Part shown: positions 11,260 through 47,923 of the stretch, in pieces | Position numbering within the stretch: position 1 is the stretch's first letter | How the letters are laid out: each line of letters opens with the position of its first letter | Source: Candidatus Dormiibacterota bacterium | GTDB taxonomy: Bacteria; Chloroflexota; Dormibacteria; Aeolococcales; Aeolococcaceae | DNA length: 64,000 nt | Direction of reading: 5' to 3' | Assembly: GCA_963751755.1 (NCBI GenBank) | Contig: CAVVVH010000007.1 | Coordinates: 43,556 to 107,555 of the forward strand | Position numbers and translations under genes: made by a program | Notes under the pieces: generated by a model | What the model saw: only the letters and a program-made list of their open reading frames with translations | Told to the model about the DNA's origin: nothing | Databases searched by the model: none

Positions 11260-12135
11260 ATGCCCACATTCGACACCCCCGAACCCATCACCATCTCCCT
11301 CGAGATCGGCGTCGGTGACATCCGCGTCGCCGCGAGCGATCGCAACGACGCCGTCGTCACCGTCCTCCCCAGCGACCCCGGCAACAGCTCCGACGTGGCT
11401 GCCGCCGAGCAGACGCGCGTCGAGTACGCCAACGGCGTGCTGCTCATCAAGTCACCAGGCGGACGCCGTCAGTGGTCCCCCCGCCGCGGTCGGGACTCGA
11501 TCGACGTCCGGGTCGATGTTCCCGCCGGGTCACATCTTCGCGGCTCTACGGCCGTGGCCACGTTGCGCTGCACGGGCAGGCTCGGCGACTGTCACTACAA
11601 GACGAGCGTCGGTGAGATCCGCCTCGACGAGACCGCCGCCGTCATGCTCCGCTCCGGGATGGGTGACATCGCCGCCAACCGCGTGGGCGGCGACGCGGAC
11701 GTGAGAACCAGCTCCGGCGCGGTCCGGCTGGGCGCAGTCGACGGCACCGCCGTGGTGAAGAACTCGAGCGGCGACACCTGGATCGGCGAGGTGGGTGGCG
11801 ACGTGCGCGTCAGCGGCGCCAACGGCAGCATCGCCATAGACCGCGCCGGCGCGACGGTGGCGGCACAGACGGCCAACGGCGACGTGCGTCTCGGCGAGGT
11901 CGCCGGCGGCGCCGTCGTCGTTCAGACCGCGCGCGGCAAGCTCGACGTCGGCATTCGCGACGGGGTCGCCGCGTGGCTGGACCTCAACACCGCCTTCGGT
12001 GCCGTCCGCAACGAGCTGGACGACGCGCCGCGGCCCGCTCCTGGCGATGCAACGGTCGAGGTGCGCGGACGCACCGCCTTCGGCGACATCACCATCCGCC
12101 GCGCCGCCGCGTACGCAATCGCAGGCCGCACATGA
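11260..12135 (+). CDS. DUF4097 (LiaG/LiaF-C-like) beta-strand repeat protein
   Basis: The motif G-D-I/V-R-V/L repeats: VGDIRVAA, VGEIRLDE, MGDIAANR, SGAVRLGA, GGDVRVSG, NGDVRLGE, FGDITIRR. Confidence 0.8.
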   Translation: MPTFDTPEPITISLEIGVGDIRVAASDRNDAVVTVLPSDPGNSSDVAAAEQTRVEYANGVLLIKSPGGRRQWSPRRGRDSIDVRVDVPAGSHLRGSTAVATLRCTGRLGDCHYKTSVGEIRLDETAAVMLRSGMGDIAANRVGGDADVRTSSGAVRLGAVDGTAVVKNSSGDTWIGEVGGDVRVSGANGSIAIDRAGATVAAQTANGDVRLGEVAGGAVVVQTARGKLDVGIRDGVAAWLDLNTAFGAVRNELDDAPRPAPGDATVEVRGRTAFGDITIRRAAAYAIAGRT

Positions 12136-13092
12136 CCGCCGCCGCACCGGTTCGAGCGCTCGAGGTCATCGGCCTGCGCAAGTCCTTCGGCGACAAGGTC
12201 GTGCTCGACGGCATCGACCTCGACGTCGCCGAGGGGACGACGTTCTCGCTGCTCGGACCCAACGGCGCCGGCAAGACCACCACCGTGCAGATCCTCTCGA
12301 CCCTTCTCCGGGCCGACGCCGGCGAGGTGCGCGTCGCGGGGTTCGACGTGGCGCGCGAACCCGAGGCGGTCCGCGCAGCGATCGGCCTCACCGGGCAGTT
12401 CTCCGCAGTCGACAACCTGCTCACCGGTGAGGAGAACCTTCTGTTGATGGCAGACCTTCACCATCTCGATCGCCGCGCACGGCGGAGTTCGAACCTCTGA
12501 GCTGCTCGAGCGCTTCGAACTCGTGGACGCCGCGGGGCAGATGGTCGCCACCTACTCGGGTGGGATGCGTCGCCGCTTGGACCTGGCGATGACGCTGATC
12601 GGCAATCCGCGTCTGGTCTTTCTCGACGAGCCGACAACCGGGCTGGACCCCCGCAGCCGTCGCACCATGTGGCAGATCATCCGCGAGCTCGTCGCCACCG
12701 GCGTCACCATCTTCCTCACCACCCAGAACCTCGAGGAGGCCGACAAGCTCGCTGATCGCATCGCTGTCCTCGACCACGGCCGGCTGGTCGCGCAGGGCAC
12801 ACCGGACGAGCTCAAGAGCAGGATTCCCGGCGGTCACACCCGCCTGTACTTCCGCGATACGGACGCGGTGCGGGCGGCGACCCAGGTTCTCGCTGACGCG
12901 TCTGCGGACAGCGACCCACTCATCCTCCAGGTTCCAACGGACGGCTCACCGCGGTCGCTGGGCGCGATCATCGGCACGCTCGAACAGCACTCCGTCTCGG
13001 TGGAGCGCGTGACGCTCCACACACCTGACCTGGACGACGTGTTCATCGCCCTCACGGGCAACCCGAGCGACGCAGCGGCGGCCGCGTCATGA
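12132..13092 (+). pseudogene. ABC transporter ATP-binding protein (DrrA-like), one frame break
   Basis: Walker A GPNGAGKTT and the Q-loop are in the frame of 12132 and stop at 12500. The signature YSGGMRRRL, Walker B LVFLDEPTTGLD and the H-loop are in ORF 12523..13092. The break lies within 12480-12500, at GGAGTTCGAACCT. There is an ATGA overlap with the DUF4097 gene. Confidence 0.85.
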
Positions 13093-13880
13093 GCGCCCTC
13101 GTCTATGCGACGCGCGACTCGGTGACCATGCTGCGCCGCGATCTTCGGCACGCGCTGCGCTACCCGGCCATGACCCTGAGCGGCGTGTTCGTGCCCGTTC
13201 TCTTCCTTCTGCTGTTCGCCGGCGTGTTCGGCAACGCCCTGCGCGCGGGCCTCGGGCAGGGCACGCCGCTGGGCGGCCGGTACATCGATTACATCGTCCC
13301 CGGGATCCTGCTGATGACCGCCAGCAGCGGCGCCGAGGCCACCGCCGTGAAGGTGTCCTCCGACATGAGCACAGGCATCATCGCGCGCTTCCGGAGCATG
13401 GCCATCAGCCGCGTGTCCGTGCTCACCGGCCAGGTGATGGGCAGCCTCATCCGCACCGGTCTCAGCGGGCTGCTGGTCGCGGGCGTGGCGGTCGCGCTCG
13501 GCTTCCGCCCGACGGCCGGCCCTGTGGGCTGGGCCGCCGCCGCCGGCGTGTTCATCCTGCTCACCGTCAGCCTGACCTGGCTCGGGGTCGCCTTCGGACT
13601 CATCGCCAAGACCCCGGAGGGCGCCAACAGCATGGCGCTGCTGCTCGTCGTGCTCCCCTTCGTCAGCAGCGCGTTCGTACCGACCAGCTCGATGCCCGCC
13701 GGGGTGCGGTGGTTCGCCGAGAACCAGCCCTTCACACCGATCATCGAAACCCTGCGCGCGTTGCTCGCCGGCACACCCGTTGGATCCAGTGGCCTCGTTG
13801 CTCTCGCGTGGTGCGCCGCCCTCAGCGCGGTCGGCTACCTGGCCGCTCGCGCTCGCTACAACCGCAACCCCGTCCGCTGA
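13089..13880 (+). CDS. ABC-2 type transporter permease (DrrB-like)
   Basis: Six hydrophobic segments are present, with ATGA coupling to the ATPase gene. RDLRHALRYPAMTLSGVFVPVLFLLLF is a typical ABC-2 N-terminus. Confidence 0.85.
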   Translation: MSALVYATRDSVTMLRRDLRHALRYPAMTLSGVFVPVLFLLLFAGVFGNALRAGLGQGTPLGGRYIDYIVPGILLMTASSGAEATAVKVSSDMSTGIIARFRSMAISRVSVLTGQVMGSLIRTGLSGLLVAGVAVALGFRPTAGPVGWAAAAGVFILLTVSLTWLGVAFGLIAKTPEGANSMALLLVVLPFVSSAFVPTSSMPAGVRWFAENQPFTPIIETLRALLAGTPVGSSGLVALAWCAALSAVGYLAARARYNRNPVR

Positions 13881-13915
13881 GGCGGGCGCAAGTCGGGCCC
13901 GGTTAGGCTGGGCCG

Positions 13916-14755
13916 GTGAGCCTCCTGTCGCCCCTTGCCGCCCTCGGGTCGGGGGCGATGCTGGGCATCGCGGACTTCGGTGGCGGGCTGGCCGGACGGC
14001 GCACTCCTGCGCCCAGCGTCATCGCCGGCATGGAGCTCGCCGGCCTGGTCTTCGCCCTGCCGTTCGCGCTGTTGCTCCTGCCGCTGCAGTGGGACGTGCG
14101 TGACATGGCACTGGCGTTCTCCGGCGGGGTGGTCGGAGGCCTGGGGCTCATCGCCTTCTACCGCGCGATGACGATCTCCCTCATCGCCGTCGTCGCGCCG
14201 GTCACCGGCGTCATCGCGGCGGCGTTGCCAGTCACCCTCGGCATCATCGGTGGTGATCGCCTGCACCTCGGTCAGGTTGTCGGCATCGTCGTCGGCCTCG
14301 CCGCGATCGCGCTCATCAACGGCGCGGGTCGCAGCCCGGCGACGGGCGCCCGCGCCGCGCTGTGGCTCGCCATCCTGGCGGGACTCTGTTTCGGGTTCTT
14401 CTTCATCGTCTTCCACGCCGGGAGCCCGGCGGGCACGGCGGCGTTCCTCAGCGGTCGCATCGGCTCCGCGCTGGCGGTGCTGCCCGCGGCCGTCATCATC
14501 GGCGCGTCGCCCATCCCGCGCAGAGGCACCTGGCGGCTGATTGCCGTCGTGGGCATGTTCGACGGGTCCGGCACCGTGCTCTATCTGTACGCGTCGCAGG
14601 GAGGTCTGCTCGCACTCACCGCCGTGCTCGCGTCCTTCTATCCCGCCTTCACCGTGCTGTGCGCGCGGCTCATCGCCCACGAACGCCAGACCCACACCCA
14701 GACGGCAGGGGCCGTTCTCGCCGTCGCCGCGGTGGCGCTCATCGCCGGCACGTGA
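13916..14755 (+). CDS. EamA/DMT family transporter
   Basis: About 10 TM segments rich in Gly/Ala are arranged as a duplicated EamA-like architecture. The start is GTG. Confidence 0.75.
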   Translation: MSLLSPLAALGSGAMLGIADFGGGLAGRRTPAPSVIAGMELAGLVFALPFALLLLPLQWDVRDMALAFSGGVVGGLGLIAFYRAMTISLIAVVAPVTGVIAAALPVTLGIIGGDRLHLGQVVGIVVGLAAIALINGAGRSPATGARAALWLAILAGLCFGFFFIVFHAGSPAGTAAFLSGRIGSALAVLPAAVIIGASPIPRRGTWRLIAVVGMFDGSGTVLYLYASQGGLLALTAVLASFYPAFTVLCARLIAHERQTHTQTAGAVLAVAAVALIAGT

Positions 14756-14767
14756 GCTGGTGGCGGC

Positions 14768-16216
14768 TCAGGCTGCCACCACCTCGCGGCTCGCTGCATG
14801 CGCGTCAGCCTCGATCGCGTGGGCGGGCACGCGCGTCCGCAGCAGCGTCGCGCCGATGAGTGCTGCAGCGGCGGCGAAGGCGCCGCCCACGAGAAACGCC
14901 ACGTGGTACCCGCTGAGCAGTGCGGCGACCTGCGTCACACCGTGCGCGCTGCTGGTTCGCGCCGCGGCCACGCTCGCCAGCACGGCCAGACCGAGCGCGC
15001 CGCCCATCATGAAGGACGTGTTCACCATCCCCGATGCCAATCCGGACTGCTCCGGTGACACGTCGCTCATGGCGGCGAGCAGCACCGGGTTGAACGCCAT
15101 GCCGGCGCCGAACCCGAGCAGGATCATCGAGGGCAGCACGTTGACAGCGAAGCTGCCATCGGCAGGCGCCAGGCTGAACAGCGCCAGCCCGGCGGCCGCG
15201 AAGGCCAGTCCAACCGCCAGCGGGCCGCGGATGCCGAAGCGCATCACCAGCTTGGCCGACACGCCGATGGACATCGCCCCCATCACCAGGTTGGCGGGCA
15301 GGAACGCGAGGCCCACCTGCAGCGCGCTGTAGCCGAGCACCAGCTGCAGGTACAGCGCCGCCATGAAGAACCAGGCGAACATCGCTGCAGCCCAGAGCAC
15401 CCCGATGACGTTGGCGGTGGCCACGTTGCGCAGCCGGAAGAGGGCGAGTGACACGAGCGGCGCGGCAACGCGCGACTCGAGGAGCAGGAACAGGGAGAAG
15501 AGTGCAACGGCGATGGCCAGACCATCGAGCGTGCGCAGCGACGTCCAGCCGGCCTCGTTGCCGTTGACCACCGCGAAGACGGCCACCATGAGCGCGGCGG
15601 TGACGGTGATCGCGCCCGCGACGTCCAGCCGCACACGCGCCGCCTGCGCGTGCCGCGCCGGCAGCAGGTTCAGCGACAGCAGCACCACCGCCGCTCCGAC
15701 GGGGATGTTGACCAGGAAGATCCAGTGCCAGCTGACCGTGGTGAGGATGCCGCCGAGCAGCACACCGACCGAGCCGCCCCCGGAGGCGACGAACCCGAAC
15801 ACGCCCATCGCCTTGGCGCGATCCGCCGGCTCGGTGAACAGGCTCATCATCAGCGACAGGCTCACCGCAGAGACGACGGCGCCGCCGATTCCCTGCACCG
15901 CGCGTGCCGTCACCAGCATCGCCTGCGACCCGGCGAGCCCGCAGCACAGCGACGCGACGGTGAAGAGCGCGATGCCTGCGATGAAGAGGCGGCGGTGGCC
16001 GAAGAGGTCGCCAAGACGGCCGCCCAGGAGCAGGAAGCCGCCGAAGGTGAGCAGGTACGCGTTGACAACCCACGCCAGCGAGGTCGCCGAGAAACCGAGA
16101 TCCGCCCGGATCGACGGCAGTGCGACGTTCACGATCGTCGAGTCGAGAACGATCATCAGCGTGCCGAGGCACAGCACCATCAGCGCGAGCCAGCGGGTGC
16201 GGGCGGTGAGGTTCAC
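14768..16216 (-). CDS. MFS transporter, DHA2 (EmrB/QacA, 14-TM) family
   Basis: LGTLMIVLDSTIVNVALPSI and LGGRLGDLFGHRRLF (MFS motif A) are present. The GTG start at 16216 follows AAGGAG with a 6-nt spacer. Confidence 0.85.
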   Translation of the reverse strand: MNLTARTRWLALMVLCLGTLMIVLDSTIVNVALPSIRADLGFSATSLAWVVNAYLLTFGGFLLLGGRLGDLFGHRRLFIAGIALFTVASLCCGLAGSQAMLVTARAVQGIGGAVVSAVSLSLMMSLFTEPADRAKAMGVFGFVASGGGSVGVLLGGILTTVSWHWIFLVNIPVGAAVVLLSLNLLPARHAQAARVRLDVAGAITVTAALMVAVFAVVNGNEAGWTSLRTLDGLAIAVALFSLFLLLESRVAAPLVSLALFRLRNVATANVIGVLWAAAMFAWFFMAALYLQLVLGYSALQVGLAFLPANLVMGAMSIGVSAKLVMRFGIRGPLAVGLAFAAAGLALFSLAPADGSFAVNVLPSMILLGFGAGMAFNPVLLAAMSDVSPEQSGLASGMVNTSFMMGGALGLAVLASVAAARTSSAHGVTQVAALLSGYHVAFLVGGAFAAAAALIGATLLRTRVPAHAIEADAHAASREVVAA

Positions 16217-16362
16217 GGCGTGCTCCTTGTCACTGTTGGGTTCGCACACGTAGACGGCAGGCAGCGGCGCGAATCATCGGTTCAGCACCACCTCGTCTCC
16301 CCGCCCGGCATGGTGCGAGCCCCGTCCGATGACTTTGGCCGCCGCGCGCGGTCTGTTCTGAG

Positions 16363-16635
16363 ATGAGGCAACCACGCCCTCGCGCAGTCCTGTGCGACGT
16401 GTCTGGGCTGCCGGCCACGCTGGCGGCGGTCGACCAGCTGGCGCGAATGCAGCTCGCGGCTCGTCGTTCCGGGTGCCAGGTCCAGCTGCGCAACACCGCC
16501 CGCGAGCTGGAGGGCCTGATCGCTCTCGCCGGTCTCGCCGACGTCCTACCCGTCGAGGTGGAGCGGCAGGCCGAAGACGGGGAACAGCGCGGCGGTGTCG
16601 AGGAAGAACGTCAGCTGGGTGATCCGCCCGTCTGA
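16363..16635 (+). CDS. STAS-domain (anti-sigma-antagonist-like) protein, apparently N-terminally truncated
   Basis: VLCDVSGLPATLAAVDQLARMQLAARRSGCQVQLRNTARELEGLIALAGLADVLP is the C-terminal two thirds of a STAS fold. An in-frame stop at 16330 limits the N-terminus. The 3' 90 nt overlap the convergent sigma-factor gene. Confidence 0.4.
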   Translation: MRQPRPRAVLCDVSGLPATLAAVDQLARMQLAARRSGCQVQLRNTARELEGLIALAGLADVLPVEVERQAEDGEQRGGVEEERQLGDPPV

Positions 16636-17551
16636 CAGCTCGAGCACCTGGAGAGCCCAGGGGTCGAAGCCGCTGCCCGTCGCGCTCGGCTTGTACTGGC
16701 CGAACGCGGGCGACCCGTTCGCCGACACCGTGGGGATGACCCGCGAGCCGCGGCAGCCGATGCCCGGCCCCCACCACCAGCTGAAGATGTCGTCGCGTCC
16801 CTGCAGCCACATGTCGAATGGCGGCATCGACTGGCTGGCGTCCTCGTGGATCAGCGCGGTCAGCGCGTCCATGTCGTAGCGCTCGAAGGCGCGCACGTAG
16901 CGGTCGAGGAGCGCGCGGTCGTCGGGGCTGAGCGGTGGCGTGGGGTCGGACGCGCTCACCCTGCCCGCGGCGAGGGTGGCGCGGGCACGCTGCAGCGCGC
17001 TGTTGACGGACGCCACGCTGGTGTCGAGGAGCTCGGCCACCTCGGACGCCTGCCAGCGCAGCACCTCACACAGGATCAGCGCGGCGCGCTGCCGCGGCGG
17101 CAGGTGCTGGAGGGCGGCGATGAGCGCCAGCCGGATCGACTCGCGCGCCACCGTCACGTCGGCGGGGTCACCCTCGAGCACCAGTTCGCCGGTCGGCACC
17201 GGTTGCACCCAGTAGGCCTCTGGCCGCGTGTGCAGGTTCGAACTCCAGCGGCGCCTGCGCAGGGCCGAGGTCCATCGGCACCGCCCGGCGCTCGCGCCCC
17301 TTGAGCATGTCGAGACAGACGTTGGTTGCGATCCTGTACAGCCAGGTGCGCAGCGCCGCCCGCCCCTCGAAGCGGTCGGACGCCCGCCAGGCGCGGACCA
17401 TGGTCTCCTGGACCGCGTCCTCCGCCTCGAACGGCGACGCGAGCATGCGGTAGCAGTACGCGGTCAGCTCGGAGCGGTGGGCTTCGAGCTCGTCGCTGCC
17501 CGCGCCGGGCCCGGGGCTGATCGTCACTGGCCTCGTCTGCACGATGGTCAT
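16546..17551 (-). pseudogene. Sigma-70 family sigma factor with NTF2/SnoaL-like C-terminal domain (TIGR02960-like), one frame break
   Basis: Region 2 ([28 protein letters not shown]...[14 protein letters not shown]) is in ORF 17168..17551. Region 4 (LQHLPPRQRAALILCEVLRWQASEVAELLDTSVASVNSALQRAR) and the SnoaL-like tail are in ORF 16546..17208. The break lies between [10 protein letters not shown] and EAYWVQPVP, at 17205-17250. Confidence 0.8.
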
Positions 17552-17590
17552 GGTACGAAGCCCCGGGCCGTGGTGGTCTGCACGCGCGAC

Positions 17591-18151
17591 CTACCGCAGC
17601 GGCTGGTACGTGACGATGACGACGCCGTCCGCCCCGACCGGCCGGGTGTCGACCAGGCGCAGCTCGGTGCGCGGGCTGCCCTCGGCGAAGAGGCGCTTGC
17701 CCGCGCCGAGGACGATCGGGAAGACCATCAGCCGGTACTCGTCGACGAGGTCGTGCTCGGCGAGCGTGCGCACCAGGTTGGCGCTGCCGGCGACGAGGAC
17801 GTCGCCCTGCGTCCGCTCCTTCAGCTTGGTGACCTCGCCTGCGACGTCGCCGCTGATCACCGTCGAGTTCTCCCAGCTCGCGTCGTCGGGGGTGAGCGTC
17901 GTCGAGACCACGTACTTCGGCATGCTGTTCATCCTCTTGCCGAACTTGTCGTCGTTCATCGATGGCCAGGCCGCGGCGAAGCCCTGATAGGTGATGCGGC
18001 CGAGAAGCTGCGCATCCGCGGCGTTGAGCTCATCGACCTTGAACTTGTCGCCGTCCTCGCCGCGGTTGAACCGGAACGCCCATCCGCCCTCGCCCGGCGA
18101 ATCGATGACCCCGTCGACGGTGATGAACTCGCTGACGATGAGCTTGCCCAT
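17591..18151 (-). CDS. Dihydrofolate-reductase-like (RibD C-terminal domain) family protein
   Basis: MGKLIVSEFITVDGV...LLGRITYQGFAAAWP...VLVAGSANLVRTL...DEYRLMVFPIVLGAGKRLF are present. Confidence 0.8.
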   Translation of the reverse strand: MGKLIVSEFITVDGVIDSPGEGGWAFRFNRGEDGDKFKVDELNAADAQLLGRITYQGFAAAWPSMNDDKFGKRMNSMPKYVVSTTLTPDDASWENSTVISGDVAGEVTKLKERTQGDVLVAGSANLVRTLAEHDLVDEYRLMVFPIVLGAGKRLFAEGSPRTELRLVDTRPVGADGVVIVTYQPLR

Positions 18152-36565: not shown

Positions 36566-38758
<2,193 letters not shown>

Positions 38759-40237: not shown

Positions 40238-41967
<1,730 letters not shown>

Positions 41968-41971
<4 letters not shown>

Positions 41972-43961
41972 GACATGGGCCGCAGGTGGAGGACGTGCGC
42001 CGGCTGGTGTGCTGGGTCGAGCCGGACGTAGTTGGCGGGGCCCCACCACGAGTACGTGGCGCCCGTGAGCTCGTCGTGCGCGGAGAAGGGCGCGTCGGCG
42101 GGGATGCCCAGGGCGGCGAGGTCGAGCCAGGTGGTGGCCTCGTGCGCGGAGTGGGGGTCGAGGTTGACGATGATGAGCAGCACGTCCTTGCCATCGTCGC
42201 TCATCCGCGAGACGCAGAGCATGTCGGGGGAGTCGATGTGGTGGACGTGCAGGGTGCGCAGCAGCGCGATCGCCTCGCGGTGGCGGCGCCGTATGCCGTT
42301 GATCGCCTCGATCATGGGCGCCAGCGAGCGCGGGTCGTTCCAATCGCGGATGCGCACCTGGTACTTCTCGGAGTTGAGGTACTCCTCGCTGCCCTCGCGC
42401 ACGGCGATGTTCTCGTACAGCTCGTAGCCGCTGTACATGCCCCAGGACGGCGCGGTCAGCGCGGCGAGGACGAGGCGCAGCCGGAAGGCGCCGGGGCCGC
42501 CGCGCTGCAGGAACGCGTGCAGGATGTCGGGCGTGTTGACCCAGAAGTTGGGCCGGAAGTAGTCGACCATCGTCGGTCGACGAGAGCTCCGTGAGGTACT
42601 CGGCGAGCTCCTCCTTGGTGTTGCGCCACGTGAAGTACGTGTAGGACTGGGTGAAGCCGGCCTTGGCGAGCGCCCGCATCACTGCCGGCCGGGTGAAGGC
42701 CTCCGCGAGGAAGAGCACGTCGGGGTGGCGTCTCGTGCACCTGGGCGATGAGCCACGTCCAGAACGGCAGTGGCTTGGTGTGCGGGTTGTCGACGCGGAA
42801 CACCCGCACCCCGTGCCCGATCCAGAACAGCATCACGTCGCGTAGCGCCGTCCACAGCGCCTCGCGGTCCTCGGTGTCGAAGTTGATCGGGAAGATGTCC
42901 TGGTAGCGCTTGGGCGGGTTCTCCGCGTAGCGGATCGAGCCGTCCGGGCGGTGGCGGAACCACTGCGGGTGCTCGGTCACCCAGGGGTGGTCAGGACTGC
43001 ACTGCAGCGCGTAGTCGAGCGCCACCTCGAGCCCCGTCTTGCGCGCCGCCGCGACGAAGGCGTCGAAGTCCCTGATGCTGCCGAGGTCGGGGTGGATCGC
43101 GGTGTGACCGCCCGCCGGCGTCGCCGATGGCCCAGGGGCTGCCGGGGTCGTCAGGGCCCGGGTCCAGGCTGTTGTTCGCACCTTTGCGGTGGGTGACCCC
43201 GATCGGGTGGATGGGGGGCAGGTAGACGATGTCGAAGCCCATCGCCGCGATCGCCGGGAGGCGCGCCCTGGCGGTGCGCAGCGTGCCCGGGTGTTGCGGG
43301 CGTCGGCTCCCTCCGAGCGCGGGAAGAACTCGTACCACGCCGAGAACGCGCCGAGCTGCCTGTCGATCCAGAGCGGGAAGGGACCGGCGAGCGTCCCCCC
43401 GCTGCGATCGATGGTGCGCTGCATCAGCGCGATCGCCGCCGGCCGTTCGGCGGCGGCCACGCGGGCCCCGGCCCCGGCCGTACCGCGGAGCGCCTTGGCC
43501 AGGGCGGCGAGCGCGGACCGGTCGGCGGCGCCCAGGCCGCCCCGCGCCAGGCGCTGCTCGGCGAGGAGCGCGCCCTCCTCGAGCTCGAGGGCGACGTCCT
43601 GGCCGTCGTCGAAGCGCAGCCTCAGGTCTCGCAACCAGCTCCCGTAGTCGTCGGGCACCCCCACCACCTCGAAGCTCCATGCGCCTGCCCTGACCGGCAC
43701 GAAGCTCGCCTCATATCGGTCGTTGCCCGCGGCGGGCAGCGTCAGCTCGCGCCACCCCGAGGGCGTCTTCGAGCCGGGTGATCCGCGCGCCGGCCGCGGC
43801 GGCCCGTGCCGGGCCCAGACGAGCAGTCGGTCGTGGCCGTCGGCGATCACCGTGGCGCTCACGTGCACAGGCAGACCAACCGCCGCCTTGGCCGGGTGCG
43901 CGCCACCGTCGACGACCGGGCGCACCTCCTCGATCAAAACTCGTCCCACGCCTGCGGGCAC
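41968..43961 (-). pseudogene. glgE: Alpha-1,4-glucan:maltose-1-phosphate maltosyltransferase GlgE, four frame breaks
   Basis: Conserved blocks lie in alternating frames. PAKAAVG...[11 protein letters not shown] is in one frame and [34 protein letters not shown]...GSPWAIG in another. Reading then returns to [11 protein letters not shown]...LQCSPDHPW...[10 protein letters not shown], then shifts to [17 protein letters not shown]...[11 protein letters not shown], then to [14 protein letters not shown]...SGYELYEN...EYL.SEKYQ. The breaks are at about 43286-43291, 43108-43118, 42720-42735 and 42568-42585. A likely GTG start at 43961 follows GGGAGGA. The ORF is open up to 43979. Confidence 0.85.
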
Positions 43962-46872: not shown

Positions 46873-47923
46873 ATGTCGCGCTATCGATGGGCACTGACCG
46901 GGCTGGCCGGACTGGTTGTGGCCGCCGTCCTGGTCACCGGGCTGCTCCGACCAGCCCCGCCCAGCGCCGCCACCGGCAGCGGCAACGCGGCGCTCATCCC
47001 CACCGACCAGCGCATGGGAGCGCCCGAGTTCACCGGCCTCGACGGCTGGCTGAACAGCAAGCCCCTCACCGTGAACGGCCTGCGCGGCAAGGTTGTGCTC
47101 GTCGACTTCTGGACGTTCTCCTGCGTCAACTGCGTGCGCACCATCCCCCACCTGCAGCACCTCCAGCAGGCGTACGGCGGCCGCGGCCTGGTCATCGTCG
47201 GCGTCCACTCCCCGGAGTTCGACTTCGAGAAGCAGCGCGCCAACGTCGCCGCGGCGGTCCAGCGCTTCGGGGTCACCTGGCCGGTGGCCATCGACTTCGA
47301 GATGAACACGTGGAACGCGTACAGCAACCAATACTGGCCGGCCGAGTACCTCGTCGACCAGTCCGGCCGTGTCGCCTACATCCACGACGGTGAGGGCGAC
47401 TACGACGTCACCGAGTTCGGCCATTGCGGCGCTTCTCGGCATCAACGCGCACCCGACGCCGGTCGCAGCAACCCCCGACCTCAGCGCGCAGACTCCCGAG
47501 CTGTACGCGGGGAGCGAGCGTGGCCAACTCGGCAACGGCGAGCACCACGGGACCATCGGAACGTCGGTGAACTACGGCAGCCAGGACACCACCACCGACG
47601 CCGACCGCATCGTCCTCGGAGGCACGTGGGCCGACCAGGGCCAGTACATGGTGTCGCGGACCGCCGGCCACGTCCTGCTCAACTTCTCGGCGCGCGACGT
47701 GTACCTGGTCGCGGGACCGGACTCGCAGCCGGTGCACGTCACCGTCACCGTTGATGGCAACGTCGTGAGCGCGCAGCAGCGCGGCCCCGACCTCGGCGCT
47801 GACGGCCTGGCCGTCACCAGCCAGCAGCTGTACCACGTTCTCGCCAACCAGGGCGGCGGCCGCCGTCTCCTCGACATCGCGGTGCCGGCCGGGTTCCGGC
47901 TCTACACGTTCACGTTCGGCTGA
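46873..47923 (+). pseudogene. Thioredoxin-like (DipZ C-terminal-type) membrane-anchored protein, one frame break
   Basis: An N-terminal TM segment is followed by LRGKVVLVDFWTFSCVNCVRTIPHL (CxxC) and ...GVHSPEFDFEK...YWPAEYLVD.SGRV..IH.GEGDYDVTE in the first frame. (S)AIAALLGI...ELYAG...GTWADQGQYMVS...VYLVAG... is in ORF 47369..47923. The junction is GAG T TCG at 47413-47419. Confidence 0.8.

Follow-up and report, generated by a model that had tools for sequence, protein, structure and literature searches.

Gene breaks at a shared 13-mer in a Dormibacteria metagenome assembly as a probable systematic consensus error, GAGTC written as GAGTTC

The 64-kb window analysed here (the whole stretch of DNA under study, C7:43556-107555 of a Candidatus Dormiibacterota assembly designated G000, which has 1,829,651 bases in 9 contigs and an estimated completeness of 52.8%) contains two genes, one for an ATP-binding cassette (ABC) transporter ATPase and one for a sigma factor, each of which is split by a +1 shift, i.e. 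by one base too many, within the same 13-nt string, GGAGTTCGAACCT. Our analysis indicates that both breaks are very probably products of one systematic consensus error in which GAGTC is written GAGTTC, and that the two genes are most likely intact in the organism; the feature is, on this account, an assembly artefact that the organism itself does not have. At the sigma factor site, independent contigs lack the extra base; breaks of the same class are enriched genome-wide, independently of gene orientation, and two more three-contig assemblies of the genus show them as well. By analogy, the ATPase site would share the cause of the sigma factor site. The error probably stems from long-read assembly, and the number of contigs, the completeness estimate and the high break rate suggest that the long reads were probably of modest depth.

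In the scenario that we propose, a true GAGTC, mostly followed by G, would sometimes be written GAGTTC in a few-contig, error-rich metagenome assembly, with a few percent of GAGTC sites affected. The real ATPase gene would then be intact and read GAG... AGT CGA ACC, the real sigma factor gene would likewise be intact and read GAG TCG AAC, and the 13-mer that they share would have GAGT(T)CG as its error-prone core, flanked by seven bases whose agreement is coincidental.

The two split genes, their orthologs and independent contigs

The string GGAGTTCGAACCT occurs twice in the window, on opposite strands (Table 1), with no third match when one mismatch is allowed and 0.03 matches expected from dinucleotide-preserving shuffles. 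A first-pass annotation of this DNA had noticed the same 13-mer at both frame breaks and had asked for a search of the genome; the observation is borne out in the window, and the entire 1.83-Mb assembly likewise holds two copies, both at +1 frame breaks. Similarly, GGAGTTCGAACC is found at just these two sites in G000.

The sigma factor gene encodes an extracytoplasmic function (ECF)-type protein, the C-terminal fragment of which scores 276 bits against NF006089 and on its own passes the cut-off of 240, while under TIGR02960, for which the cut-off is 265 bits, the two fragments score 129 and 261 bits. The translation of the frame upstream of the break ends in ...APLE. Between the conserved CCG CTG and AAC CTG, all eight aligned orthologs (L014-L017, L019, L020, L023 and L024; L018 and L022, which are from unpublished genomes, and the partial L021 were excluded) have 6 nt, that is two codons, and the window has the 7 nt GAGTTCG. 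The break point set by ortholog alignment therefore lies within the 13-mer and not outside it, in agreement with the first-pass annotation. None of the conclusions drawn here depends on unpublished genomes.

Independent sequence for this site comes from four public soil-metagenome runs of two studies (X1-X4), contigs of which were compared with the window over 11900-17700. The sole X1 contig at the sigma factor site is 722 nt long, covers 16898-17620 at a depth of 4.45 and differs in one other letter, and the sole X3 contig is 226 nt long and differs in three other letters. Both omit one base at 17241, and therefore they read GAGTC. A one-base omission at 14345 in a single low-identity X4 contig was set aside as belonging to another organism. 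These contigs bear on the possibility that the extra T's are real mutations, namely T duplications at GAGTC by a context-specific process that makes pseudogenes in this lineage: the extra T's are indeed present in the assembly itself, yet at the sigma factor site the T is missing from the near-identical contigs of two other runs.

In the ATPase gene, neither fragment alone, at 125 and 181 bits, is above the TIGR01188 whole-protein cut-off of 312 bits. The N-terminal fragment, listed as an open reading frame (ORF) from 11973 (11973..12500) with a likely start near 12132, closes at a TGA (12498-12500) that is met solely owing to the shift; the C-terminal fragment is listed as the ORF 12523..13092, in a frame that is open from 12433. 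Within 12468-12498, L002-L006, which comprise four orthologs and one paralog-like copy, each have one base fewer. A motif, G-R-x-R-[AV]-x-E-L-L, is common to the four orthologs; in the window, the upstream frame gives R-R-S and the downstream frame R-T-S-E-L-L, the flanking-frame translations being HHLDRRARRS followed by RTSELLERFELVDAAGQMVATYSG. Because R-x-R is conserved in the four orthologs, the extra base would be one of the four bases AGTT, the simplest candidate being a T of the pair at 12488-12489. As a separate observation in this gene, GAGTTCGAA (12485-12493) and its reverse complement TTCGAACTC (12514-12522) form a 9-nt inverted repeat with 20 nt between the arms, the second of which consists of in-frame R-F-E-L codons; at the sigma factor site, no comparable partner was seen in the stretch read, though no search was made for one.

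The restored peptides that the first-pass annotation had given for the two genes are exactly the translations of the flanking frames, and its proposal that dropping one T from GAG-T-TC explains both breaks is supported by the ortholog alignments and, for the sigma factor, by the independent contigs. The presence of the same string at two breaks, both in the +1 direction, could alternatively suggest programmed +1 recoding at GAG-TTC-G, by the ribosome or during transcription, through which both genes would be expressed at full length. This is opposed by the absence of the extra base from the independent contigs, from all eight sigma factor orthologs, from all four ATPase orthologs and from the paralog-like copy.

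Beyond the two genes, the window holds three more GAGTTC sites at +1 breaks (37368, 40559 and 47413; Table 1), in DNA that is otherwise 76-94% identical to that of the closest relatives. The exception among these relatives concerns 37368, where the three-contig assembly G001, from another species, has an extra T, identical to that of the window, in the orthologous GAGGAGTCGACGG (locus L025, G001:C1:61573-65123). Taken as real mutation, this T could have been inherited; G016, equally close to the window, is without it, and we consider that its occurrence in G001 points to a context-driven recurrent error.

Table 1. Positions within the window of the shared string, the gene fragments and the GAGTTC frame breaks
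Feature	Position	Strand	Context or evidence
13-mer copy 1, GGAGTTCGAACCT	12484..12496	+	inside ABC ATPase gene
13-mer copy 2, GGAGTTCGAACCT	17234..17246	-	inside sigma factor gene
Probable DrrA-type ABC transporter ATPase, N-terminal fragment	12132..12500	+	TIGR01188 positions 1-103, 125 bits
Same ATPase, C-terminal fragment, +1 frame	12490..13092	+	TIGR01188 positions 116-302, 181 bits
AGTT, four bases of which one would be extra	12486..12489	+	suggested by R-x-R spacing in four orthologs
ECF-type sigma-70 factor (TIGR02960 / NF006089), N-terminal fragment	17168..17551	-	true part ends at GAG 17243-17245
Same sigma factor, C-terminal fragment	16546..17241	-	listed ORF 16546..17208; frame continues from TCG 17239-17241
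TT of GAGTTC (AA on + strand)	17241..17242	-	one base absent in independent contigs; 8/8 orthologs one base shorter exactly there
GAGTTC at +1 break	37368..37373	-	4/5 relatives GAG-TCG; hidden Markov model (HMM) frame switch 37352
GAGTTC at +1 break	40559..40564	-	5/5 relatives GAG-TC; HMM frame switch 40554
GAGTTC at +1 break	47413..47418	+	5/5 relatives GAG-TCG; HMM frame switch 47424

A genome-wide class of extra-base breaks

Frame breaks were located throughout G000 with a 7-state Viterbi frame tracker, using a codon model trained on 308 long ORFs of the assembly. The tracker reported 1226 same-strand switches from coding to coding sequence, 1137 of them with flanks of 90 nt or longer (763 extra-base switches and 374 of the other type). 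Switches that had a stop in the old frame no more than 20 nt away resemble gene ends and were removed (88 and 256, respectively). This leaves about 675 insertion-type against 118 deletion-type breaks in 1.83 Mb, corresponding to about one insertion-type break per 2.7 kb and one break of either type per 2.3 kb. Real mutations at this density would disable a large share of the genes. Other procedures were tried and given up: a first changepoint scan on the phase of third-position G+C content (GC3) yielded 1270 events mixed with gene boundaries and a weak hexamer signal, and was replaced; a strict codon-likelihood scan (106 extra-base and 15 other events) missed most sites; and a site classifier with windowed maxima, which left 85% of positions ambiguous, was abandoned.

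Around the 675 breaks, at distances of up to 20 nt, GAGTTC/GAACTC is the most strongly enriched of all hexamers (43 observed, 12.4 expected, z 8.7), and longer motifs are enriched as well (GAGTTCG, 29 against 5.6 expected; GAGTTCGA, 14 against 1.8). In the window itself, the frame-tracking model places 14 extra-base switches, 5 of which have GAGTTC within 45 nt. The first-pass annotation's assignment of both breaks to a GAGTTC class thus has statistical backing; it had taken no position on whether the class is biological, and the present evidence favours a consensus error of this assembly. It must be considered whether the two breaks arose instead from random errors with no relation to each other and share 13 bases by coincidence, with no error class specific to GAGTC. 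The bulk of the 675 breaks, several hundred, indeed lies outside GAGTTC in unrelated G+C-rich contexts such as CCGGGCA and CGTGCC, and the excess at GAGTTC amounts to only about 30 of them; the rank and z score of GAGTTC, its presence at 5 of the 14 switches in the window and its far stronger excess in G001 (see below) nevertheless speak for a specific class, and we judge unrelated errors to be highly improbable.

Secondary contexts enriched within 20 nt of extra-base breaks include CCGGGCA (28 observed, 10 expected), CGTGCC(C), CGCTGC and ACGCCCGG, which suggest more context-specific insertions at short G/C runs. A further observation in the window is a long coding stretch on the minus strand (41981-43900) with four frame switches in about 720 nt (42571, 42728, 43113 and 43287), none of them at GAGTTC.

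The class is found in both orientations relative to genes. An independent GC3-phase test, for which the majority of sites were not scorable, agrees with the tracker: GAGTTCGA coincides with an extra-base break at 10 of the 13 scorable sites where it is antisense to the gene and at 7 of 48 where it lies on the coding strand, with a missing-base break at none of either. Among 55 class sites from G000, G001 and G016, the motif is on the coding strand in 31 and on the opposite strand in 24, and a translational signal is therefore excluded: in these 24, neither the ribosome nor a signal in the mRNA could act on it. Moreover, 5 of the 7 copies of GAGTTCGAAC in G000 are not at a break, and 3 of these 5 are read as in-frame GAG TTC GAA. 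Together with the ortholog and contig data, this makes programmed recoding scarcely credible as an explanation of the two breaks.

Relatives were run as controls through the same frame tracker. In the many-contig assemblies G013 and G005 of the genus (110 and 70 contigs), 400 kb contained 5 extra-base breaks, none near GAGTTC, and 8 breaks of the other type. The three-contig G001 had 20 extra-base breaks in 200 kb, 9 of them near GAGTTC where 0.44 were expected (Poisson p 1e-9), and the three-contig G016 had 15 in 198 kb, 3 of them near GAGTTC where 0.28 were expected (Poisson p 0.003). Extra-base breaks number 3.7 per 10 kb in G000 and 0.0-0.2 in the many-contig relatives. Within the genus, the three few-contig assemblies (G000, G001 and G016) thus show the GAGTTC class and the two many-contig ones do not, a distribution that would argue against real mutation in the lineage; in view of this, of the independent contigs and of the break density, we regard real mutation as very unlikely. 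The ratio of GAGTTC to GAGTC follows the same division, with 0.52 in G000, 0.51 in G001 and G016 and 0.37 in G013 and G005 (Fisher p 0.00016 and 0.011), and is supportive only, as it compares different species.

Sequence context of the error and points that weigh against it

The first-pass annotation had taken the 13-mer match to indicate that the relevant context extends beyond the hexamer to the whole string. The match is above chance when compared with random sequence; within the GAGTTC class, it is at chance level. The 44 distinct class sites of G000 make 946 pairs, 4 of which have at least 7 contiguous flanking bases in common, and other pairs share 13-14-mers of different sequence, in one case a 14-mer. 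GGAGTCGAACC, the form without the extra T, has three copies in G000, none of them at a frame break, which lends no support to a role for the 13-mer as a whole. The identity of the two copies beyond GAGTTCG is at chance level, and the 13-mer itself is not special. In comparison with unaffected GAGTC sites, class sites favour a C before the motif, an A as the second base after it and a C as the fourth (chi-square p 0.001-0.03), and these preferences at three positions are weak and confounded by codon phase. AGCGAGT(T)CGAGC has four copies bearing the extra T and four lacking it; these counts, like the three copies of GGAGTCGAACC, are too small to decide.

A reading of the motif as a palindromic GANTC was rejected, as the mirror product GACTTC is not enriched: 12 of its 305 sites on the coding strand and 4 of its 43 on the opposite strand lie at extra-base breaks. 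Separately, GGGAGTCGAACCC and GGGAGTTCGAATCTCCC sit in non-coding stretches (G000:C6:238930 and C5:89840) and show what we take to be a resemblance to tRNA T-arms.

It should be noted that several points weigh against a systematic consensus error. Unaffected GAGTC sites, 1843 in G000, are the majority. The break counts come from our own codon model and not from a gene caller, and by the same tracker the many-contig controls still have 0.0-0.35 breaks per 10 kb. At the ATPase site, no listed close contig of X1-X4 spans 12484-12496, and the extra base there rests on the orthologs and on analogy. That X1-X4 are short-read data is suggested by contigs of, for example, 151, the library type not being on record; X1 and X3 come from one study, and could hold a sister strain and not the same population. 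Two few-contig assemblies of another family are without the GAGTTC class: G037 (1 contig) had one extra-base break in 200 kb and G040 (20 contigs) had three, none near GAGTTC, which shows that contiguous assemblies do not in general carry the error. Finally, the methylation-linked nanopore assembly errors covered in the accessible part of one report (PMC11610603) are mainly substitutions (C to T and G to A), not insertions.

Possible methylation, consequences and comparison with known systems

The T that is duplicated lies opposite the adenine of GACTC in the complementary strand. It is possible, although we hold this only tentatively and think it rather doubtful, that GAGTC/GACTC carries N6-methyladenine on the GACTC strand, set by a conserved PF01555 methyltransferase, and that the extra T is the mark of this epigenetic modification. 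Two genes for PF01555 N6/N4 methyltransferases, a few kb apart, are present in all five genus genomes searched; their best solved relatives are M.RsrI (E 3e-20) and CcrM (E 1.5e-11), and their specificity is not readable from sequence. PF02384 methyltransferases were found in G013 only. One of the PF01555 genes is itself split in two in G000 (G000:C4:317206-317908, minus strand; profile positions 3-110 and 123-213) and intact in G001, G016, G013 and G005. If the methylation hypothesis were true, errors in native-DNA long-read assemblies would read out the methylome, and an insertion-type signature would be added to the substitution-type ones already known.

G000 is a species-representative genome with about one spurious frameshift per 2.7 kb, and its apparent pseudogenes and split genes, and perhaps its low completeness estimate, should not be read as biology; apparent pseudogenes anywhere in it are suspect, and the completeness estimate may be partly depressed by the spurious breaks. 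The GAGTC-to-GAGTTC class is specific enough for automatic flagging or correction in G000 and in at least two related assemblies.

Programmed +1 frameshifting, of which prfB is an example, resembles the present case in that a +1 shift occurs at a fixed short sequence. In contrast to such frameshifting, the GAGTTC site is not conserved in orthologs and occurs on either strand relative to the gene, and independent contigs lack the extra base.

A further comparison is with methylation-linked nanopore errors, which, according to the part of the source at hand, are motif-bound, strand-specific and recurrent, and persist in long-read-only assemblies (PMC11610603). The errors in G000 are likewise motif-bound and recurrent, and they differ from the substitutions treated in that part in being insertions. 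In the literature searched on nanopore or basecalling errors and on motif-bound indels, we found no description of the GAGTC-to-GAGTTC context.

Consensus errors of long-read-only assemblies are the other known phenomenon with which the breaks in G000 can be compared. In the available portion of one report on a high-G+C actinobacterium, 798 bp of differences led to 292 extra coding sequences (PMC11649196), and indels that require short-read polishing are described in the part available of another (PMC9262707). In the present case as in those, to the extent that these portions cover them, single-base indels break up genes and raise the gene count, and the known ones vanish when short-read data are used. 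Compared with them, the errors in G000 are overwhelmingly insertions (675 against 118), and the most specific of their contexts is not a long homopolymer but GAGTC, a non-homopolymer pentamer that is written as GAGTTC.

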